DNA from: a virus
Lineage: Duplodnaviria > Heunggongvirae > Uroviricota > Caudoviricetes
Length of the DNA stretch: 28,151 nucleotides
IMG/VR virus record: IMGVR_UViG_2563366928_000002
Reading direction: 5' to 3' (one strand)
Below, piece by piece: positions 731-25,290 of this stretch. The notes beneath the pieces were generated by a model, which saw only the letters and a list, made by a program, of their open reading frames with translations, did not search any database and was not told where the DNA came from. Made by a program: the position numbers and the translations under genes. Position 1 is the first letter of the stretch. Every line of letters starts with the position of its first letter.

Positions 731-1046
731 TATAATAAACTTACTTTTTTATCATTTTTCCACTTTAACAACATTTTGCTCCACTTTTCCACGACCAAAC
801 AACTTGAAATCTGGTTAAAATAACACGCAACACTATTCTTCTTCCTTGAGTCCGCCCGGAACTCGAAAAACAAACCGAGTTAAAGCCATTTTTCACAAAA
901 TCGATTTTGGGTCTCACCAAAATTACGGGGTTGCATACGCATTCGTTTATTTTCGAACGTGTACATACAAACATGCACAAAAATAATCAAAATTATTTTC
1001 TGAGATGCATTATGATATGAACACCAATTTCGTATAGAGTCTCACT

Positions 1047-1637
1047 ATGTCTCGAATTTTTGCTTACTGTCGGATATCAACGCTGGATCAGACCACCGAA
1101 AATCAACGCCGGGAAATCGAAAGTGCAGGTTTTAAAATCAAACCTCAGCAAATAATCGAAGAACACATTAACGGCTCAGCAGCAACCAGTGAGCGTCCTG
1201 GTTTTAACCGGTTGCTTGCTCGCCTGAAATGTGGTGATCAATTGATTGTGACAAAACTGGATCGCCTTGGTTGTAATGCAATGGATATCAGGAAAACAGT
1301 GGAACAACTGACCGAAACAGGTATCAGAGTGCATTGCTTAGCATTGGGGGGCATTGACCTGACCAGTCCAACAGGAAAAATGATGATGCAAGTAATTTCA
1401 GCAGTCGCTGAATTTGAACGAGACCTTTTACTTGAACGCACTCATTCCGGGATAGTAAGAGCCCGGGGCGCAGGGAAACGTTTTGGTCGACCACCTGTGT
1501 TAAATGAAGAACAGAAACAGGTGGTATTCGAACGGATTAAGTCAGGTGTAAGTATAAGTGCCATTGCCCGGGAATTCAAAACCTCGCGGCAAACCATTTT
1601 AAGAGCCAAAGCAAAACTTCAGACACCTGACATATAA
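1047..1637 (+). CDS. pin: serine recombinase, Pin/Gin/Hin DNA-invertase family
   Basis: 196 aa; N-terminal catalytic region with CRISTLDQ (active-site Ser) and C-terminal HTH; convergent with the tail fiber operon as pinR/pinQ are in K-12 prophages. Confidence 0.9.
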
Positions 1638-1864
1638 AAAATAATCTCGGTGTGAGATGCCTTACGTCTTCCAAGCCCCCTTCCTTGCCGTAAATGGAAA
1701 GATACATCTAATTATAGAATTTATATGTTTTACCCTACGGCAGTGCTGGCCATTCAATATCCTGTGCAGTTGACGTATCAACACGGTTCAGCAACACCCG
1801 ATACTTCTTCCAGGCTTCCCGCAACGAGGTTTCTTCCTCCGTTGCATATACAGCTCACCTTTTT

Positions 1865-2158
1865 TCACCCACGATTAACCAACAGCCAGACCAGCAGACA
1901 CGCCACCACCGGCACAGCAAAATCCATCAGGCTTGCCACATCCCACGCACGCGGATCAAAACCGCCCCACCACGGCATATTCATACGCTTGCCATGCCCG
2001 AACATTTCAATCCAGCGATATTCTGCCTGGGTATGTTCACGCGCAATGAAGAACGTACAACCAGCTATCGCCCCGTAAGCCCAGTTTCCGGTAAAAAGAC
2101 CAACCAGTACCTGCGCAGCCACAGCACAAAGTGCATGAAGGAAAGGTGTTATATCCAT
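1865..2158 (-). CDS. hypothetical small membrane protein (two predicted TM segments)
   Basis: 97 aa; AAGGAGG Shine-Dalgarno 4 nt before ATG; start 10 nt after the stop of the 234-aa gene; hydrophobic N- and C-terminal stretches. Confidence 0.5.
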   Translation of the reverse strand: MDITPFLHALCAVAAQVLVGLFTGNWAYGAIAGCTFFIAREHTQAEYRWIEMFGHGKRMNMPWWGGFDPRAWDVASLMDFAVPVVACLLVWLLVNRG

Positions 2159-2168
2159 TACGCCTCCT

Positions 2169-2873
2169 TTATCCGATATCGCTTCGGGAAACGGATAACA
2201 ACTTTAATTCTGACTCAAGTTCATCAACTCTTTCAGTCAGCTTCTGGATATGGTGAATCAGTGGAACAACCAGACGTTCGTACATTACACCTTCGGCAAC
2301 AAGGCCATTGCTGGAAATGGTTTCCGGTGCATCATCTTCGTTGGCTGGTCGCCAGTGAACAAACTGAGGGGCAATTTCTCCAACTTCCTCGGCAATCAAT
2401 CCATAGAATCCCCAGTCACGCCTGTCATTTTCGCATTGCGACCTGTACCACACAGGGCGCATCCTGAAAATGAGATCGGCGTGCTCTGAATCTATCGTCT
2501 CTACTGAATGTTTATAGCGGATAGACGATGTTGACCGCAGCACAGACGAAATTGCAGGGTCAGGATTAAGATAAAGATTTGCCGCCGCTGTAGTTGTGCC
2601 CAATCCCCATAAATAAAACGCTTCACGGCCAGTCAGCGGGTAAAAATCTCCGCCATAACGACCACTTTCCAGATCGTTCACTTCCACTTTGTTTTTCAGC
2701 TTATTATCAACTTCAGTTTTTGTGTATCTGGTGCTGATATCCTGCTTTGCACTGGCCATATCAGTCTGAAGCGTTGATACTTTTCCGTTAATAGAGGAAA
2801 TATCTTCCTTTGCTTTACTAACATCTCCCTTCAGCGTGGTGATGTCTCCCGGAATTACTGTTGATGTAGCCAT
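2169..2873 (-). CDS. tail-fiber-like protein with C-terminal intramolecular-chaperone (peptidase S74-like) domain
   Basis: 234 aa; GAGG 8 nt before ATG; N-terminal ~11-residue repeats (GDITTLKGDVS / KAKEDISSING / KVSTLQTDMAS); C-terminal FYGLIAEEVGEIAPQFV ... VMYERLVVPLIHHIQKLTERVDELESEL resembles the autochaperone domain of tail fibers and tailspikes. Confidence 0.5.
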   Translation of the reverse strand: MATSTVIPGDITTLKGDVSKAKEDISSINGKVSTLQTDMASAKQDISTRYTKTEVDNKLKNKVEVNDLESGRYGGDFYPLTGREAFYLWGLGTTTAAANLYLNPDPAISSVLRSTSSIRYKHSVETIDSEHADLIFRMRPVWYRSQCENDRRDWGFYGLIAEEVGEIAPQFVHWRPANEDDAPETISSNGLVAEGVMYERLVVPLIHHIQKLTERVDELESELKLLSVSRSDIG

Positions 2874-2882
2874 TTCTCTACC

Positions 2883-3164
2883 TCACATCCAGCCACGAAG
2901 TTGATGCTCAACAGCAACCGCGTATTCATCGAATAATGACGATATTTGCGTATCCTTAATAATGCGCACGTTTACAAAATATCCATCTTCCTTAACACAT
3001 ACCGGTTCGCCATCTTCAGTCAGCTCTCCGGTTTCTTTGTACACGTTACCTATCACATCAATCAGAATATCATCCTGCATCGACTCGTCATTATAATAGC
3101 CAATACTTCCCATAAAGGCCGAAAAGTCGGCCCTGTCGGCAAATTTGAGTGTTAAATCTTTCAT
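2883..3164 (-). CDS. hypothetical acidic 93-aa protein, translationally coupled to the tail fiber gene
   Basis: ATG overlaps the stf stop (TAATG); GGGGGAG SD upstream; no recognisable family; sits where tfa would be expected. Confidence 0.45.
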   Translation of the reverse strand: MKDLTLKFADRADFSAFMGSIGYYNDESMQDDILIDVIGNVYKETGELTEDGEPVCVKEDGYFVNVRIIKDTQISSLFDEYAVAVEHQLRGWM

Positions 3165-5386
3165 TAGATTGACTCCCCCATCTGAGCATCAGTCAATGCC
3201 TTGTGCCAAATACGCAGATTTCGAACGTGTCCAAATAGGTGACGGTTGCCGGATGATGATTGACCACCAATATTAATGAAGCCTCCTGTATATTTGTGTT
3301 TTTTATAAGGAGAAACTACCTTAGCACCAATATTACCGTTAACCACAACACACAATTCTCGACTTTCTGTGAATCTAAAGCCGATAATGCTTTTTCTCTC
3401 TGGTCGTTCTATAACGCTTTTATATTCTATTTTAGTGCCTTTACCATTTGTAATGATTGCGCGTGCTCCCAAAGATGTATACCCCAAATACATATAACTT
3501 TCATCTGCAATTTCAGTTGTATCTCCCGTAGTGGAAATATTAAGAATACGTGCGCTACCTTCTTTGTTTGGCGATTCATCCCAATTGGTATTAACTTCTG
3601 CTAATGAACTAATAGCGGGATTGCACCAATTTAGAGAAATGGGGACCGTTACAATATCGCTGGCGCGTGTTACAGGGGATGCGCCTGTTATAATAAACGA
3701 TGAAGCGCATGCCCCACCTTCAACTTGAGGGGTCGCAATATAAATATAATCATCCGCGCCAGTGCCCACTCCTTTTGCCGGGGCATACTGAACCATTCCA
3801 CCTATCATATTTTCTGTATCAAGTGCCTTAATTGTCGCCTCAAAAAAGATCCATTTGCTTGCTTCATCTTTAACAGCCCTTGCAGTAATGCGATTAGCGG
3901 CACCACCCGTCTTATCAATAGATAAATCTGTCGTATTTAAGTAAGCGTCACCTAAGAATGTGTAGGTAGAACCATCATAGTTTTCAAATCGTAATCGGCA
4001 TCTTAAATTTGGAGTGCCACTTTGCACCCTGCATGATATGGTTACATACTTTTCTCCGCCTGTTACATCAAAACCTTTACTGCCGGAAACGGTTACTATG
4101 TTAATCGCTGAAATTTGCCCTACCATTTCTGGTTTTAATGTAAATTTTGCGTACTGGAATCCGAAATCATCTACACCTGATGCACTTAAGATCATATTTG
4201 ACGACTTGTTCCATTTAGTCGGATTTGTTGAATTGATTAGCAGGTTAGTTCTTTGCCCCTCAATAAGCAGGCCATCACGTTTAAATCGTGGCTCGTCAAT
4301 GGCAGCCTCTGTCAGCACACCAGATTTATTAATGTAAGTTGCTTTCGATGCGCGTTTAAACTTTACAATCTTGTCGCCAGGCATTGTTATTTCATCGTCG
4401 CCAATAACAATTTTTTTATATGATGGCGAAAAGCCCGTAATCATATCCAGTGAATCATTAAACGGTATCCACACATCGGGCAACGGCTGCAAAACTTGTT
4501 TATACGGCTCCGCTGCCTGGCTTGCATACTCTCTGGCTGCGTCTTCACTTGCTTTAGCTGCTGTCTGGCTTGCTGCCGATGCTTGCGCCGAGTTCGCCGC
4601 CGCAGTCTCGCTCGCCTTTGCGTTGGTTTCACTGGTTTTTGCTGCTTTTTGACTGTTAGCTGATGCAGTGGCAGAAGCAGCCGCCGCGCTTGCAGAACTG
4701 GCTGCGGCACTCTCGCTTTGGGCCGCTGCATCCTGACTGCTTTTCGCCGCAGTTTCACTGGCTTTGGCATTCGTTTCGCTGGTCTTCGCTGCCGTCTGGC
4801 TGGACTTTGCGTTGGTTTCGCTTGTCGTTGCGGCTGTCTCGCTATTTTTCGCGTTGGTTTCTGATTTTTTAGCTGCTGTTGCGGAGTTTGCCGATGCAGT
4901 CTGCGAGGCCGCTGCCGCCTGTGCGCTGTTAGCTGCATTCGTTTCTGAGGTTTTCGCCGCGTTCTTCGATGATGCCGCTGCAGTTTCGGATTTCTTTGCC
5001 GCCGCTGCGCTCTGAGAGGCGGCTTCAGCGTTGCGTGCCGCTTCTTCCACCATTTCCTCAAAACGACGCAATGCCTCCGGCATGACATCATCTTCCGTCA
5101 TGGCACCGAGAAAATCATTCAGCGTACCTGGTCTGGAACCTTCATAGACGGTAATGGTTCCGGCATGTGAAGGCGGAAAACCTTCAACCAGCAGGGTGAC
5201 GCTGTACTGGCTATACTCAACATCCATGCTGTAACGCCCGGCTTCATCCGGATTTTCAGAGGCCACCGTGTTGACCAGTACCGTGGTGCTGTTACGCTTT
5301 GCCTTCAGTTGAATAGTGCAGTTCTGTATTGGTTTTCCCGCACCATCTTTCAGCACACCTGAGATTTTTACTGCTGCCATATCCAC
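3164..5386 (-). CDS. stf: side tail fiber protein (lambda Stf-like N-terminus, divergent receptor-binding C-terminus)
   Basis: 740 aa; N-terminus MAAVKISGVLKDGAGKPIQNCTIQLKAKRNSTTV closely matches recalled lambda Stf; Ala/Ser-rich SETNAK-type repeats; C-terminus NLRIWHKALTDAQM looks like a lectin/LamG-type fold rather than the lambda Stf C-terminus. Confidence 0.85.
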   Translation of the reverse strand: MDMAAVKISGVLKDGAGKPIQNCTIQLKAKRNSTTVLVNTVASENPDEAGRYSMDVEYSQYSVTLLVEGFPPSHAGTITVYEGSRPGTLNDFLGAMTEDDVMPEALRRFEEMVEEAARNAEAASQSAAAAKKSETAAASSKNAAKTSETNAANSAQAAAASQTASANSATAAKKSETNAKNSETAATTSETNAKSSQTAAKTSETNAKASETAAKSSQDAAAQSESAAASSASAAAASATASANSQKAAKTSETNAKASETAAANSAQASAASQTAAKASEDAAREYASQAAEPYKQVLQPLPDVWIPFNDSLDMITGFSPSYKKIVIGDDEITMPGDKIVKFKRASKATYINKSGVLTEAAIDEPRFKRDGLLIEGQRTNLLINSTNPTKWNKSSNMILSASGVDDFGFQYAKFTLKPEMVGQISAINIVTVSGSKGFDVTGGEKYVTISCRVQSGTPNLRCRLRFENYDGSTYTFLGDAYLNTTDLSIDKTGGAANRITARAVKDEASKWIFFEATIKALDTENMIGGMVQYAPAKGVGTGADDYIYIATPQVEGGACASSFIITGASPVTRASDIVTVPISLNWCNPAISSLAEVNTNWDESPNKEGSARILNISTTGDTTEIADESYMYLGYTSLGARAIITNGKGTKIEYKSVIERPERKSIIGFRFTESRELCVVVNGNIGAKVVSPYKKHKYTGGFINIGGQSSSGNRHLFGHVRNLRIWHKALTDAQMGESI
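4540..5040. repeat. tandem degenerate ~36-nt coding repeats inside stf (Ala/Ser/Thr-rich fiber shaft)
   Basis: Reiterated GCTGC/TTTCGC/GGTTTC motifs encoding K(T/S)SETNAK(A/S)SETAA units; also generates spurious antisense ORFs. Confidence 0.7.
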
Positions 5387-5391
5387 TCCAC

Positions 5392-5417
5392 AAAAAAGCC
5401 CGCCTGAACCGGCGGGC
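5392..5417 (-). terminator. rho-independent terminator downstream of lom
   Basis: GCCCGCC-TGAACC-GGCGGGC hairpin followed on the minus strand by TTTTTTGTGG. Confidence 0.6.
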
Positions 5418-5444
5418 TGTCATAACACTGTGTTACCTGGCTAA

Positions 5445-6044
5445 TCAGAATTTATAACCGACACCCACGATGAAACCGTCAGTGCGCCAGTCGCCACTGC
5501 CGGAACCTTCATAAGCAATATCAATGGCCACGGATTCGGTCGGGTTAAACTGCACGCCAGCCCCCCATGCCAGAGACGTGTCGCTGTGGCGACCGTCATC
5601 ACTTCCGGTCAGCACATCGTGCGTTTTCCCCTTGTTGTCAGTTACGCGGATATAATCTCCGGAGAAAGTCGAAACACGGCTGTAAGCCATACCCGCCATC
5701 GCATACGCGCTGAACCATTCATTCACGCGCACAGACGGCCCCACCATCACGCTGAACCAGCGGTTACGCACGGAATCTTCATGCCAGCGGGTATCGCTGT
5801 AACGGGTAAGCTGGCGATTCTTGTCTCCTGCATAGCTGAATGACGTCACCATCCCCAGTGTGTCCGTAAACTCATAACGGTATTTCACGTTAATCCCGTT
5901 CAGATCATCGCTGCCGGGAACGTTCGTCGAGGCATGAAGATACCCCGCGCTCAGCGTGGACTGATGTTCAGATGCCCATGCAGGCGCACCGGATACGGCC
6001 AGACAAATGGCTGCGGAAAAAATGGCGGCACAAACTTTACGCAT
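5445..6044 (-). CDS. lom: Lom/Ail/PagC-family outer membrane beta-barrel protein
   Basis: 199 aa with signal peptide, alternating beta-strand pattern and C-terminal GYKF; position between J and stf as in lambda. Confidence 0.8.
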
Positions 6045-6067
6045 AATTACCTCTCGCTTTTCTGCAA

Positions 6068-6092
6068 TAAAAAAGGCGCCATTTCTGGCGCC
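6068..6092 (-). terminator. rho-independent terminator downstream of J
   Basis: GGCGCC-ATTTCT-GGCGCC hairpin followed on the minus strand by TTTTTTATT. Confidence 0.6.
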
Positions 6093-6111
6093 CGTATATG
6101 GGTTATAAAAT

Positions 6112-6951
6112 TCAGCTGATACTGATGCCTGCGGTGGCTTTCTTCATCACCACAACCAGCAGATCGCTGATACTTGCTGTGGGATACCAGTCATTTACCA
6201 GCCATGCTGACACCGAAAACTCCAGCGTCATGTGACCGTGACCGGCAGGCATATCAATAACGCCACTGTAAATCAGCGTATTATCCAGCGCGGTACGGTT
6301 ATAAATTTCAGCACCGTTTTTCCGCACTATCAGACGGCATGAGGAGTAAATATCAGTATGCTCTCTCTCATGTTTAGCGCCGCTGAATGCCACCGCCGGA
6401 ATAACAATCTGCCGGTCAAACGGCTGATCGTCATAAACCCTGACGGTAATGGTCCCTGATGGCCACCGTTCCGGTGCACGGGAGTCCCGGGGGAAAGCTT
6501 TGCCCACTGTTTTAACGAGATCGCCTTCAATCTGGTTCGCGGACAGTTTTCCCAGAACCCGACAGTTCTCGTTAATCGTGACGTTGTTGAGCGTCCCGGA
6601 GTTCGCATTCACGTTACCACTGATATCCGCATTTTTAGCAGTCAGCTTTCCGTCCGGTGTCAGGGAAAATGCCGGTGGATTTCCACCACTGGTAATGGTG
6701 GGGGCCGTCAGGCGCTTCAGGAACACGTCGTTCATGAATATCTGGTTGCCCTGCGCCACAAACATCGGCGTTTCATTCCCGTTTGCCGGGTCAATAAACG
6801 CGATACGATTGGCGGCAACCAGAAACTGACTCAGTTTGCCTTCCTCTGTATCCTCCATGCTGAGGCCAATACCCGCGACATAATGTTTGCCGTCTTTGGT
6901 CTGCTCAATTTTGACAGCCCACATGGCATTCCATTTATCGTTGGCATCCTT
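6112..6951 (-). pseudogene. J: C-terminal remnant of tail tip/host specificity protein J, 5'-truncated by the IS3-family insertion
   Basis: [108 protein letters not shown] matches recalled lambda J C-terminus; the track ORF start (6963) lies inside the IS terminal repeat. Confidence 0.8.
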
Positions 6952-6959
6952 TGTAGTGG

Positions 6960-9862
<2,903 letters not shown>

Positions 9863-9881
<19 letters not shown>

Positions 9882-21683: not shown

Positions 21684-21890
21684 CTTCATTTTCACTTTTT
21701 TAAATCCAACGACAGACGGCTGGCATTTAAGTATTGTGAAATATTATCAAATGTAATCATCATTGATTTACAAAAGATACATTTTGCCCCGAAAGGATTC
21801 ATGTCAGAAACATCAAAAGATGATGTTCTATACTGGGAACCATGACAACACGGGCATCTAAAGTGAATATGGTTTGTAATATTGTCTACC

Positions 21891-22103
21891 TCAAAGCGCC
21901 ACTACATGAACAGCGGCAGGACCTTTAGGTCCGTTCTCAATACCAAATTCAACTTCCTGATTCTCAGTTAATGTTTTGAAATCGTTGCTCTGAATTGCTG
22001 AGAAATGGACAAACACATCTTTGCTGCCATCTTTCGGCGTGATGAAACCAAAACCTTTTTCAGGGTTAAACCATTTCACTAAACCAGTCATTTTGTTAGA
22101 CAT
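21891..22103 (-). CDS. cspI: cold shock protein CspI (CspA family)
   Basis: 70 aa; [38 protein letters not shown] with RNP1/RNP2 motifs. Confidence 0.9.
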
Positions 22104-22465
22104 AATTATTACCTTTTGAAGAAATTAGCCCTTGGGCAGAATGGTCCGAAAAAAAATATCAGAGAGAAAAACCAACAAGGAAATCTCAAGAGGTACAAAT
22201 AATAAAATTATAACAATGACTGCTTCAGATAAATTTGTAACAAACCAGAACACCATTAACGCATGATTAACCACCCATAGCAAGGATTACTTTTGTAAAG
22301 AAAAACACAGCAATGAAAGAATAGCTTTATTTATTAATAAAACGTGTCATTCTGATTAAGACCTTTTATCTTACCCTTAAGATTTCAGGAATTTTGGCTC
22401 ATGGAAGAGTCCTTTTTATTTAAATTTTACATTCCGCGATGTAAATGTTCCGATTTAATATTACC

Positions 22466-24493: not shown

Positions 24494-24774
24494 GAGATTG
24501 TGGTGCTTTTTGTGGGAGTCATCCACTTACGCACTTTGTTTTGCCATGCCAGCAGTTAGCTTCTGCTGTAAAACTATTCATGCAGCAAACCTGCACTTCA
24601 CCACAATGGTTAGCATACTTTTCCTGATTAAGATTTTGCCAAATATGCTAGCCATTGTTTCATGTATTGGACCTCCTTACTTTTTATTAAAGAGATCCAA
24701 TATTCACTACTCTGTCCGTATCTCTACTCAGGCATCAGCCTTCTTCGTTATCGTATACAGACGAGCGATGAATT

Positions 24775-24990
24775 TTAATCAGTAATGATGACATTTGCTG
24801 CTGCAGGACCTTTAGCACCACTCTCTATAGAGAAGGTAACCTTTTGACCTTCAAATAAGGTTCGATAATTATCATTCTGAATCGCAGAAAAATGCACAAA
24901 CACATCTTTACTACCATCAACAGGAGAAATAAAGCCGAAACCTTTGTCAGCGTTAAACCATTTTACTAAACCAGTCATTTTATTTGACAT
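24775..24990 (-). CDS. cspB: cold shock protein CspB (CspA family)
   Basis: 71 aa; [38 protein letters not shown]. Confidence 0.9.
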
Positions 24991-25290
24991 TCTACATTCC
25001 TTAACTTGAGCCTTTCGGCATAAATGGTTTGCATAACAGAAACGACTTCGTACTTAATTGGAGAGACTCAAAGAAGGAATAAGTGAATAACACCTGAAAT
25101 GAGAACTGCTTTAGTAAACTACTTCGTATATCGTCTGTTCTTCAAACCGACGCAATCATTAACGCATAGTTGAACATATGAAGCAATGTTTATTTTAGAC
25201 ATCCAGCCATCTTCAACCCCATCAAAAAACTATAGCTTTCTTCAGGAACGTGTGTATAGTGCGCCAAGTTATCAGTATTAAGGAATTTTT

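Follow-up and report, generated by a model that had tools for sequence, protein, structure and literature searches.

A side-tail-fibre cassette of a defective Qin-type prophage in Escherichia coli: a probable lambdoid, minimal-tip version of the two-part lateral fibre, with a membrane-protein cargo gene behind it

What stands in the place of the tail fibre assembly gene when a lambdoid side tail fibre carries a foreign end? This question is raised by the virus record IMGVR_UViG_2563366928_000002 (Caudoviricetes), a stretch of 28,151 nucleotides that is called the window below. Its gene for the side tail fibre, Stf, is followed not by an intact gene for the tail fibre assembly protein Tfa but by three small open reading frames (ORFs), here named p93, p234, and p97. 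All four ORFs that an earlier note on this DNA had described are present on the minus strand. Position numbers are window coordinates, and residues of Stf follow the numbering of the 740-aa ORF.

3164-5386, minus strand: Stf, 740-aa ORF
2883-3164, minus strand: p93, 93-aa ORF, small acidic alpha/beta protein
2169-2873, minus strand: p234, 234-aa ORF
1865-2158, minus strand: p97, 97-aa ORF

The region probably represents a side-tail-fibre module, rebuilt by cassette exchange, that belongs to a defective lambdoid prophage of the Qin type in E. coli. The window shares 99.9% identity with the Qin prophage site (ydfJ-ydfK-pinQ) of E. coli MSB1_4I, and a copy of the cassette covering at least 80% of a 3.9-kb query is found in 189 of 5426 complete E. 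coli genomes. Isolated lambdoid phages also carry it, namely IdasGreatGrand and PhiR49_1, as well as HannyBb, the third gene of which differs. It is a real and fairly ordinary mosaic receptor-binding cassette, and its architecture is already recognised in outline; new here is the lambdoid, minimal-tip version of the two-part lateral fibre. The earlier note had called the module non-canonical and its three small proteins unlike anything that could be named, and both statements went too far. The order of Stf, p93, and a fibre ending in an intramolecular chaperone (IMC) is found again in lambdoid phages, Drexlerviridae, Seuratvirus, and T5-like phages; Dhillonvirus probably has it too, with a record that breaks off within the third gene. 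Moreover, p234 has a standard S74 IMC fibre end, and p93 and p97 fall into PHROGs 1361 and 1443, respectively.

The fibre protein itself can be divided into four parts:

4985-5380, minus strand: Stf N-terminal anchor, residues about 3-134 (Pfam phage_tail_N, PDB 9e7m, RefSeq start)
4487-4984, minus strand: Stf shaft, residues about 135-300, Ala/Ser/Glu/Thr-rich 14-residue repeats
3662-4486, minus strand: Stf C1, residues 301-575, conserved junction QPLPDVWIPFNDSLDM and then a domain with homology to the head-spike fibre of RcGTA
3167-3661, minus strand: Stf C2, residues 576-740, hypervariable LamG/ConA-like terminal domain

The boundaries between the modules of the cassette are seen in GC content and in sequence identity, with C1, C2, and p93 varying independently of one another. 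From 52-56% in the N-terminus and shaft of Stf, the GC content falls at residue 301 to values of 39-46% that persist through p93 and p234 (shaft 56%, C1 42%, C2 39%), which bears out the mosaic receptor-binding cassette that had been proposed. With 53% GC, p97 stands apart; it has its own composition, distribution, and history, and the three downstream genes do not form the single unit as which they had been presented. The tight, coupled junctions that had been described are seen in the DNA. The start codon of p93 overlaps the stop codon of stf (TAATG), the ATG of p234 is preceded by GAGG at a distance of 8 nt, and that of p97 is preceded by AAGGAGG, so that intact ORFs with good ribosome-binding sites follow closely on each other. 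Calculated against homologues from plaque-forming phages, the ratio dN/dS is 0.07 for C1, 0.31 for C2, 0.21-0.32 for p93, 0.17 for p234, and 0.09-0.20 for p97. Values of 0.07-0.32 in every part indicate real, maintained genes under purifying selection. Rfam and tRNA scans returned nothing within the cassette, and a PADLOC scan gave no match for p93, p234, or p97 and a single chance-level match to LmuB (E 0.018) for Stf.

The prediction that Stf has a lambda Stf-like N-terminus and shaft repeats was correct. Pfam phage_tail_N (PF08400) matches residues 5-134 with an E-value of 7.5e-66, PDB entry 9e7m ('Tail fiber protein') matches residues 5-97 with an E-value of 5e-48, and the repeats of 14 residues reappear in the DNA as a tandem repeat with a period of 42 nt at 4744-4861. 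The true start of the protein is probably the ATG at 5380, which would give a length of 738 aa, since RefSeq uses this codon and position 2 of the profile aligns to residue 5. The allele in the window is 189 nt shorter than that of most genomes with the cassette (aligned spans of 3901 vs 4090 nt). It appears to lack 63 residues, or about 4.5 shaft repeats, relative to the common allele, a polymorphism in shaft length.

From about residue 301 onward, this lambda-type anchor and shaft are continued by an imported block of low GC content, C1-C2. C1 is recognised by the NCBIfam model NF048003 ('GTA head spike fiber') at residues 374-575 with 61.4 bits against a curated cutoff of 36, and a profile built from 10 homologues matches Rcc01080 of RcGTA (PDB 6tb9) with an E-value of 1.8e-15. 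Rcc01080 has a predicted lectin-like fold and is present as one subunit per head spike; the tagged protein shows increased binding to cells in the presence of capsule (PMC7296036, PMC10218006). Between phage groups, C1 sequences are 46-92% identical. For C2, Laminin_G_3 (PF13385) matches all of 10 homologues, in each case below the gathering score and always on the C-terminal strands; the window sequence scores 19.8 bits against a gathering score of 27.6, and the best E-value among the homologues is 2.3e-5. Together, the NF048003 match, the Rcc01080 profile, and this recurrent sub-gathering match uphold the idea of a lectin-like C-terminus of Stf, with C2 as a probable LamG-like domain.

The two domains differ in how they vary. 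Relative to IdasGreatGrand, C1 is 92%, p234 92-96%, and p97 96% identical, but C2 just 41-44%, and at least four types of C2 are distributed among nine phages independently of C1. This pattern of sequence variation makes C2 the most likely determinant of specificity. Each chain of the fibre trimer would then end in its own sugar-binding head, with C2 setting the specificity, and lectin-type heads of this kind may need no Tfa-type chaperone. In E. coli SCU-172, the 3' end of the same stf gene is interrupted by an IS1 element within the region coding for C2 (locus coordinates 6565-7480); the gene is annotated there in three pieces, as an N-terminal pseudogene, a 'phage tail protein', and a 'phage head spike fiber domain-containing protein'.

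If Stf ends in its own binding heads, what could the product of the third gene, p234, contribute? This protein consists of three parts:

2829-2873, minus strand: p234 N-terminal motif MATSTVIPGDITTLK, residues 1-15, predicted docking motif
2529-2828, minus strand: p234 mature body, residues 16-115, coiled-coil stalk and small distal tip
2172-2528, minus strand: p234 C-terminal intramolecular chaperone (Peptidase_S74), predicted self-cleavage before Ser116

The C-terminal domain, which had been described as autochaperone-like, is matched by Pfam Peptidase_S74 (PF13884) at residues 116-172 with 27.2 bits against a cutoff of 22. The L-shaped tail fibre of a T5-like phage (PDB 8hqz_d) also matches p234, with an E-value of 1.2e-7, and PHROG 454, which comprises T5-like fibres, aligns to residues 23-224. 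A Ser/Lys dyad five residues apart (S116-S-I-R-Y-K121, S-x4-K) is kept in all of 7 homologues. The body of p234 weakly matches the coiled-coil trimer of P22 gp26 (PDB 4lin, E 0.0046), and its tip of 55 residues (61-115) is 70% identical to the corresponding part in KarlJaspers and 56% identical to that in tuinn.

At the N-terminus, the pattern M-x-T-x-T-x-I-P-x-D-I-x-x-L-K (also given as MATxTxIPxDIxxLK) is invariant in the 7 third-gene products that were aligned, which come from four phage groups: lambdoid phages, Drexlerviridae, Seuratvirus, and one T5-like phage. A scan of about 100 loci for the core of this motif (TxTxIPxDI) located it nowhere but at the beginning of the gene that follows p93, including that of the Dhillonvirus 'rolling'. 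Third-gene products range from 225 to 574 aa and combine the common motif and chaperone with completely different middles. The 1385-aa fibres of PHROG 3299 align through their positions 214-399 with the Stf shaft and through positions 1147-1384 with the entire p234, which suggests that a fused single-chain version of the Stf/p234 arrangement exists.

We surmise that p234 is built as a second, short fibre, one of the possibilities that the earlier note had raised and one that the S74 domain, the conserved motif, and the dyad fit well. The invariant motif may dock p234 to the end formed by Stf and p93. The S74 chaperone would trimerise the coiled coil and tip and then cleave itself off before Ser116, leaving a mature subunit of 115 residues, and the virion would carry a branched fibre with two binding elements. 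Virion proteomics of swan01, a phage that carries the cassette, lists five proteins and no fibre proteins among them (PMC6563131, Table S5a), a data set too shallow to inform on this point. The third gene of the close relative tuinn is split into ORFs of 166 aa and 51 aa, both of which match the S74 chaperone (locus coordinates 3912-4649). The gene is intact in swan01 (224 aa), and the split in tuinn represents a frameshift or a sequencing error.

Between the two fibre genes lies p93, which encodes an acidic protein (19 Asp/Glu vs 8 Lys/Arg) with PHROG matches to 1361 and 18574 alone, both of unknown function. No Pfam or NCBIfam family, Tfa/Caudo_TAP included, matches p93 at E-values up to 0.1. 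Its fold has no similarity to a solved fibre chaperone, and a search of BFVD (predicted viral structures) gave uncharacterised proteins alone. The earlier view that p93 is no Tfa chaperone therefore stands. By tblastn, p93 occurs in 181 phage records. In the loci inspected from eight phage groups (lambdoid phages, phage 21, Drexlerviridae, Dhillonvirus, Seuratvirus, T5-like phages, rV5-like phages, and a phage-plasmid), it always directly follows a fibre gene with a C1-C2 end, and the same holds for 80 of 80 IMG/VR loci that were fetched.

How does p93 vary relative to its neighbours? Among nine phages, its pairwise identity is uncorrelated with that of C1 (rho 0.03) and with that of C2 (rho -0.06), though C2 abuts p93. 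By comparison, it tracks the identity of the first 35 residues of the third-gene product (rho 0.83, exact Mantel p 0.0008, n = 7). Taken with the gene order, this co-variation points to a single module made up of p93 and the beginning of the protein that follows. Produced in step with Stf by virtue of the overlapping stop and start codons, p93 could serve at the distal fibre end as a small joint or as an assembly factor, and the N-terminal motif of the following protein could be its partner.

A different function for p93 must be taken seriously. It might be a non-structural folding chaperone for lectin-type Stf heads, analogous to Tfa or gp57A and unrelated to the distal fibre, with the co-variation reflecting linkage. 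We regard this as possible, though not as the favoured explanation. It is a serious rival because p93 persists where the third gene is absent: the association with C1-C2 is strict even in such loci. In addition, the protein is small and acidic, and the overlap of its start with the stop of the fibre gene is an arrangement shared by many pairs of fibre and chaperone. However, a dedicated folding factor sits poorly with an identity that follows the N-terminus of the third-gene product and neither C1 nor C2, or with the lack of sequence or fold likeness to any known fibre chaperone. Furthermore, the RcGTA homologue of C1 was made in E. coli as a fluorescent fusion that binds cells, with no mention of a helper protein (PMC10218006).

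The last gene of the cassette, p97, encodes a small protein of PHROG 1443. The note had proposed two transmembrane helices; the AlphaFold2 model (pLDDT 92) shows three, at residues 4-23, 26-52, and 74-96, with a loop at 53-73. We found no credible match in Pfam (best PhoR, E 0.052, far below cutoff), NCBIfam, or PADLOC, and ten distant members of the family compared with Pfam gave nothing above noise (best E 0.016). The family comprises 431 clusters at 50% identity and has neither a Pfam nor an NCBIfam model. In a profile search of 1.84 billion representatives, the members listed were stand-alone proteins of about 63-146 aa (most of them 90-120), with no long fusion among them.

In close relatives of p97, the segment AREHTQAEYRWI..FG.GKR.NMPWWGGFD is almost invariant. 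Among distant members, Glu41, Trp72, and Pro83 are invariant and His8, Gly29, Arg40, Gln44, Ala45, and Asp79 nearly so; the conserved polar set His8, Arg40-Glu41, Gln44, and Asp79 may lie near one face of the membrane. The residues that precede Cys11 are unlike a lipobox and the position of this cysteine varies between homologues, leaving no evident lipoprotein signal. These features are consistent with a stand-alone inner-membrane protein of three helices, the highly conserved loop of which is predicted to be periplasmic. One UniRef entry calls the exact p97 sequence 'Ybl63'. In the literature we found no description of p93 or p97.

The contexts of p97 point to an autonomous cargo gene of temperate phages, carried behind receptor-binding genes, and not to a fibre component. 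In temperate E. coli phages, it directly follows p93 in 77 of 77 phage-21-type loci with no fibre gene between, and it is missing from the cassette versions of virulent Drexlerviridae, T5-like phages, and Seuratvirus. The receptor-binding genes beside it are exchanged entirely, whereas its own sequence keeps 77-98% identity. The gene p97 is found behind a P22-type tailspike in the P22-like phage Gally, where it lies past a strong terminator and an AT-rich, promoter-like gap. It also occurs behind gpJ in Comamonas, behind a pectate-lyase-type spike in Citrobacter, behind Tfa in the Halomonas phage phiHAP-1, and behind S74-bearing fibres within the tail operon of P2/HP1-like prophages of Aeromonas and Leclercia. 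That p97 may be a moron-type gene, as had been suggested, agrees with its GC content (53% vs 39-46%), its patchy distribution, and its varied contexts, although neither a promoter nor a terminator of its own was found in the window.

When one genome per species was scanned, the gene upstream of p97 homologues was pirin in three loci, most simply those of Aeromonas, and NAD-dependent DNA ligase (ligA) in three others, which are probably alphaproteobacterial. In Aeromonas, the p97 homologue is a normal gene of the chromosome with no genes of phages close to it, and the pirin context suggests a cellular origin for the gene in phages. As to its function, we guess with low confidence that p97 changes or guards the envelope, by superinfection exclusion or surface modification.

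Several loci with p97 homologues have neighbours that deserve mention. In Aeromonas rivipollensis, the homologue beside pirin (locus coordinates 6001-6309) has two genes for lipid A acyltransferases just downstream. In the P2/HP1-like prophages of Aeromonas and Leclercia, the homologue comes directly after the S74-bearing fibre and is followed by more tail genes (locus about 2100-5300), and it occupies the slot of the P2 fibre chaperone gene G. In phage 21, stf, p92, and p97 are directly followed on the opposite strand by the sitABCD iron/manganese transporter operon (locus coordinates 5177-8626), a large block of cargo at the same end of the late operon.

A bolder account would make p93 a universal adaptor that accepts exchangeable mini-fibres through a 15-residue plug and, at the same time, p97 a new class of envelope protein. 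In this combination, p97 could be a widespread inner-membrane class of prophages, captured from a cellular gene (Aeromonas, sphingomonads), that excludes superinfecting phages or remodels a conserved component of the envelope. We advance both parts together only tentatively.

Could p97 instead act late, in the service of adsorption? As an accessory factor of the fibre it might, for example, prevent the loss of virions on envelope debris of the producing cell and would then be no lysogeny gene. Such a role is unlikely. Its close coupling to the upstream receptor-binding gene in many contexts, even in mid-operon among the tail genes of P2/HP1-like prophages, would fit, as would the failure to find its own promoter or terminator in the window. 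Yet the gene is absent from virulent phages with the same Stf-p93(-fibre) cassette, forms a separate transcription unit past a terminator in phage Gally, and keeps 77-98% identity beside receptor-binding genes that change completely; in Aeromonas and alphaproteobacteria, it is an ordinary chromosomal gene far from phage genes.

The interpretation of p234 as a miniature distal fibre has to be weighed against the idea that it is a trans-acting chaperone that folds and trimerises Stf and so replaces Tfa functionally. BASEL labels the homologues of KarlJaspers and VogelGryff 'putative lateral tail fiber chaperone', the Pfam family bears the name 'chaperone of endosialidase', the mature part is very short (115 aa), and the gene sits roughly at the position expected of tfa. 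Nevertheless, we consider this role quite improbable. Phage 21, PhiR41_1, and 77 further loci have a C1-C2 fibre with p93 and lack a p234 gene; since the same fibre end and p93 occur without it, p234 is best read from these sequence comparisons as a miniature distal fibre and not as a trans-acting chaperone. In homologues that share the motif and the chaperone, obvious binding domains add 100-450 residues, and one such homologue, gp24 of IrisVonRoten, is modelled as a T-shaped fibre. The 1385-aa fibre family also holds a p234-like end within a single chain. To our knowledge, every S74 domain that has been characterised works in cis, on the N-terminal portion of the same chain, as in endoNF and T5 pb1, which counts against a role in trans.

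That the three small ORFs are functionless leftovers of a dead prophage is extremely improbable: the prophage is indeed defective, with the genes from tape measure to J lost to IS3 and IS30 and tfa truncated, but the ORFs are intact with good ribosome-binding sites, the same genes occur in plaque-forming phages, each exact protein sequence is present on about 1000 contigs, and on the strength of their dN/dS values (0.09-0.32) we rejected a pseudogene or junk origin.

Several observations weigh against the two-part fibre with p97 as cargo as we describe it. The role of p93 and the docking of p234 were deduced from gene order, motif conservation, and co-variation, and this co-variation comes from 7 phages and might have arisen without contact, by p93 and the adjacent 5' end being inherited vertically together. 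Docking cannot be the sole role of p93, because p93 is kept in phage 21, PhiR41_1, and the 77 further loci where no third gene exists. The published model of the IrisVonRoten fibre joins gp24 to the proximal fibre and leaves the p93 homologue unmentioned (10.1101/2024.09.12.612763). A mature p234 of just 115 residues is small for a receptor-binding fibre, and the LamG assignment of C2 falls below the Pfam gathering score. As for p97, its lack of an own promoter or terminator in the window and its position inside the tail operon of myovirus prophages fit late co-expression better than a classic moron, and no homology, fold match, or match to a defence family backs any specific function.

The surroundings of the cassette place it in the prophage and show where it came from. 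They comprise the following features:

1735-1845, minus strand: tfa 3' remnant, 37 codons, RefSeq pseudogene 'tail fiber assembly protein, missing N-terminus'; its frame is visible in the DNA
1047-1637, plus strand: pinQ, serine DNA invertase (Pfam Resolvase and HTH_7; RefSeq name pinQ)
5397-5418, minus strand: terminator-like hairpin between lom and stf, stem of 8 pairs with 7 G-C, followed by a T run
6112-9881: deleted region, in which the tail assembly gene T (9447-9881) and a C-terminal J fragment (6112-6951) flank an IS3-family remnant with an inserted IS30

The head and tail genes of the prophage are lambda-like and lie upstream, in the order J fragment, lom, stf at the end next to the cassette. 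Sequences of IS3 and IS30 replace the tape measure through most of J, and the genes lost between T and the J fragment are the tape measure, M, L, K, I, and most of J. With these gone, the prophage is defective and the fibre cassette is reusable only by recombination with another lambdoid phage. The earlier claim that tfa was replaced holds insofar as no intact Tfa is encoded; the replacement was not a clean one, as a 3' remnant of 37 codons, overlooked at the time, adjoins the orphan invertase pinQ. From this remnant and the pin invertase, the cassette is seen to descend from an stf-tfa module of the classic kind.

A segment next to an invertase might be an invertible host-range switch of the type of Mu G, P1 C, or e14 P. 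The inverted repeats detected at 900-5600 are just short and at chance level (14-22 nt, 73-88% complementary). For want of credible inverted repeats on either side of the cassette, we rejected an invertible segment and regard pinQ as an orphan. Like the hairpin in the window, a terminator annotated in phage 21 lies just upstream of stf, in the interval between J and that gene.

Elsewhere in the window, Rfam detects the Hfq-binding sRNA isrC at 9242-9364 on the minus strand (145 bits vs a gathering score of 39), inside a truncated transposase remnant beside IS30. Two leaders of the cspA thermoregulator type, at 21864-22249 and 24759-25151 (minus strand), lie upstream of the prophage cold-shock genes cspI and cspB. 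These genes are located in moron-like islands of Qin with low GC content (32-38%).

Multi-protein lateral fibres decide which surface glycans of E. coli a phage can use, and the cassette is common to temperate lambdoid phages and to virulent phages in collections and in therapy-oriented engineering. Nothing is overturned by the present finding. If the 15-residue motif and p93 form a standard joint, new binding tips could be grafted onto lambda-type delivery particles, and p93 as an adaptor would amount to a natural plug-and-play system for host range. The function of p97 could add a new mechanism of exclusion or envelope modification.

Which known systems does the cassette resemble? The closest described one is the lateral tail fibre gp22-gp23-gp24 of IrisVonRoten (Bas32). 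According to an AlphaFold-Multimer model (Humolli et al., 10.1101/2024.09.12.612763), gp24 is a distal fibre attached to the proximal gp22, and a 'galectin-like' domain juts out at the C-terminal end of gp22. By BLASTP, gp22 has the same C1-C2 end as Stf of the window, with 61% identity in C1 and 33% in C2. The 92-aa gp23 is a homologue of p93 (38% identity), with a gene that overlaps the stop of the proximal fibre, and gp24 shares the N-terminal motif and the S74 chaperone of p234. The two systems differ in three respects. The anchor in the window is the N-terminus of a lambda Stf, in a temperate lambdoid phage; the distal fibre is reduced to a minimal stalk and tip of 115 residues, whereas gp24 is a T-shaped protein of 574 aa with two binding domains; and a gene for p97 is appended.

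The LtfA/LtfB fibre of DT57C and DT571/2 (PMC4728585, PMC10713586) is a looser parallel. It too consists of two proteins, the second attached via the first and each with a C-terminal chaperone, and p234 matches the LtfA chain 8hqz_d (E 1.2e-7). Both of its proteins are large, however, and neither a p93-like gene nor an end of lectin type is in evidence there; in both cases, the attachment site is a genetic inference. With lambda Stf/Tfa, the window shares the N-terminal domain and the place after J and lom, but the C-terminal 440 residues of Stf are unrelated and p93 and a second fibre gene are found instead of an intact Tfa. RcGTA Rcc01080 (PDB 6tb9) has a lectin-like domain homologous to C1, and the RcGTA protein is what attaches to capsular polysaccharide there (PMC7296036, PMC10218006). 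It is a single chain on the base of a capsid spike, while C1 is fused to a trimeric shaft and followed by a LamG-like domain. The S74 domains of T5 pb1 and endoNF resemble that of p234 in their C-terminal position and in a Ser and a Lys five residues apart; p234 differs in an unusually short passenger, and its self-cleavage is a prediction made here.

For p97, the nearest parallels are small membrane proteins encoded beside receptor-binding genes, namely Cor of phi80 and N15, Llp of T5, gp15 of HK97, and Iap of D3. Unlike these, p97 is related to none of them in sequence or family, is not tied to one receptor type, and also exists as a normal chromosomal gene. What p97 shares with them is the place behind a receptor-binding gene, the small size, the membrane location, and the bias toward temperate phages.

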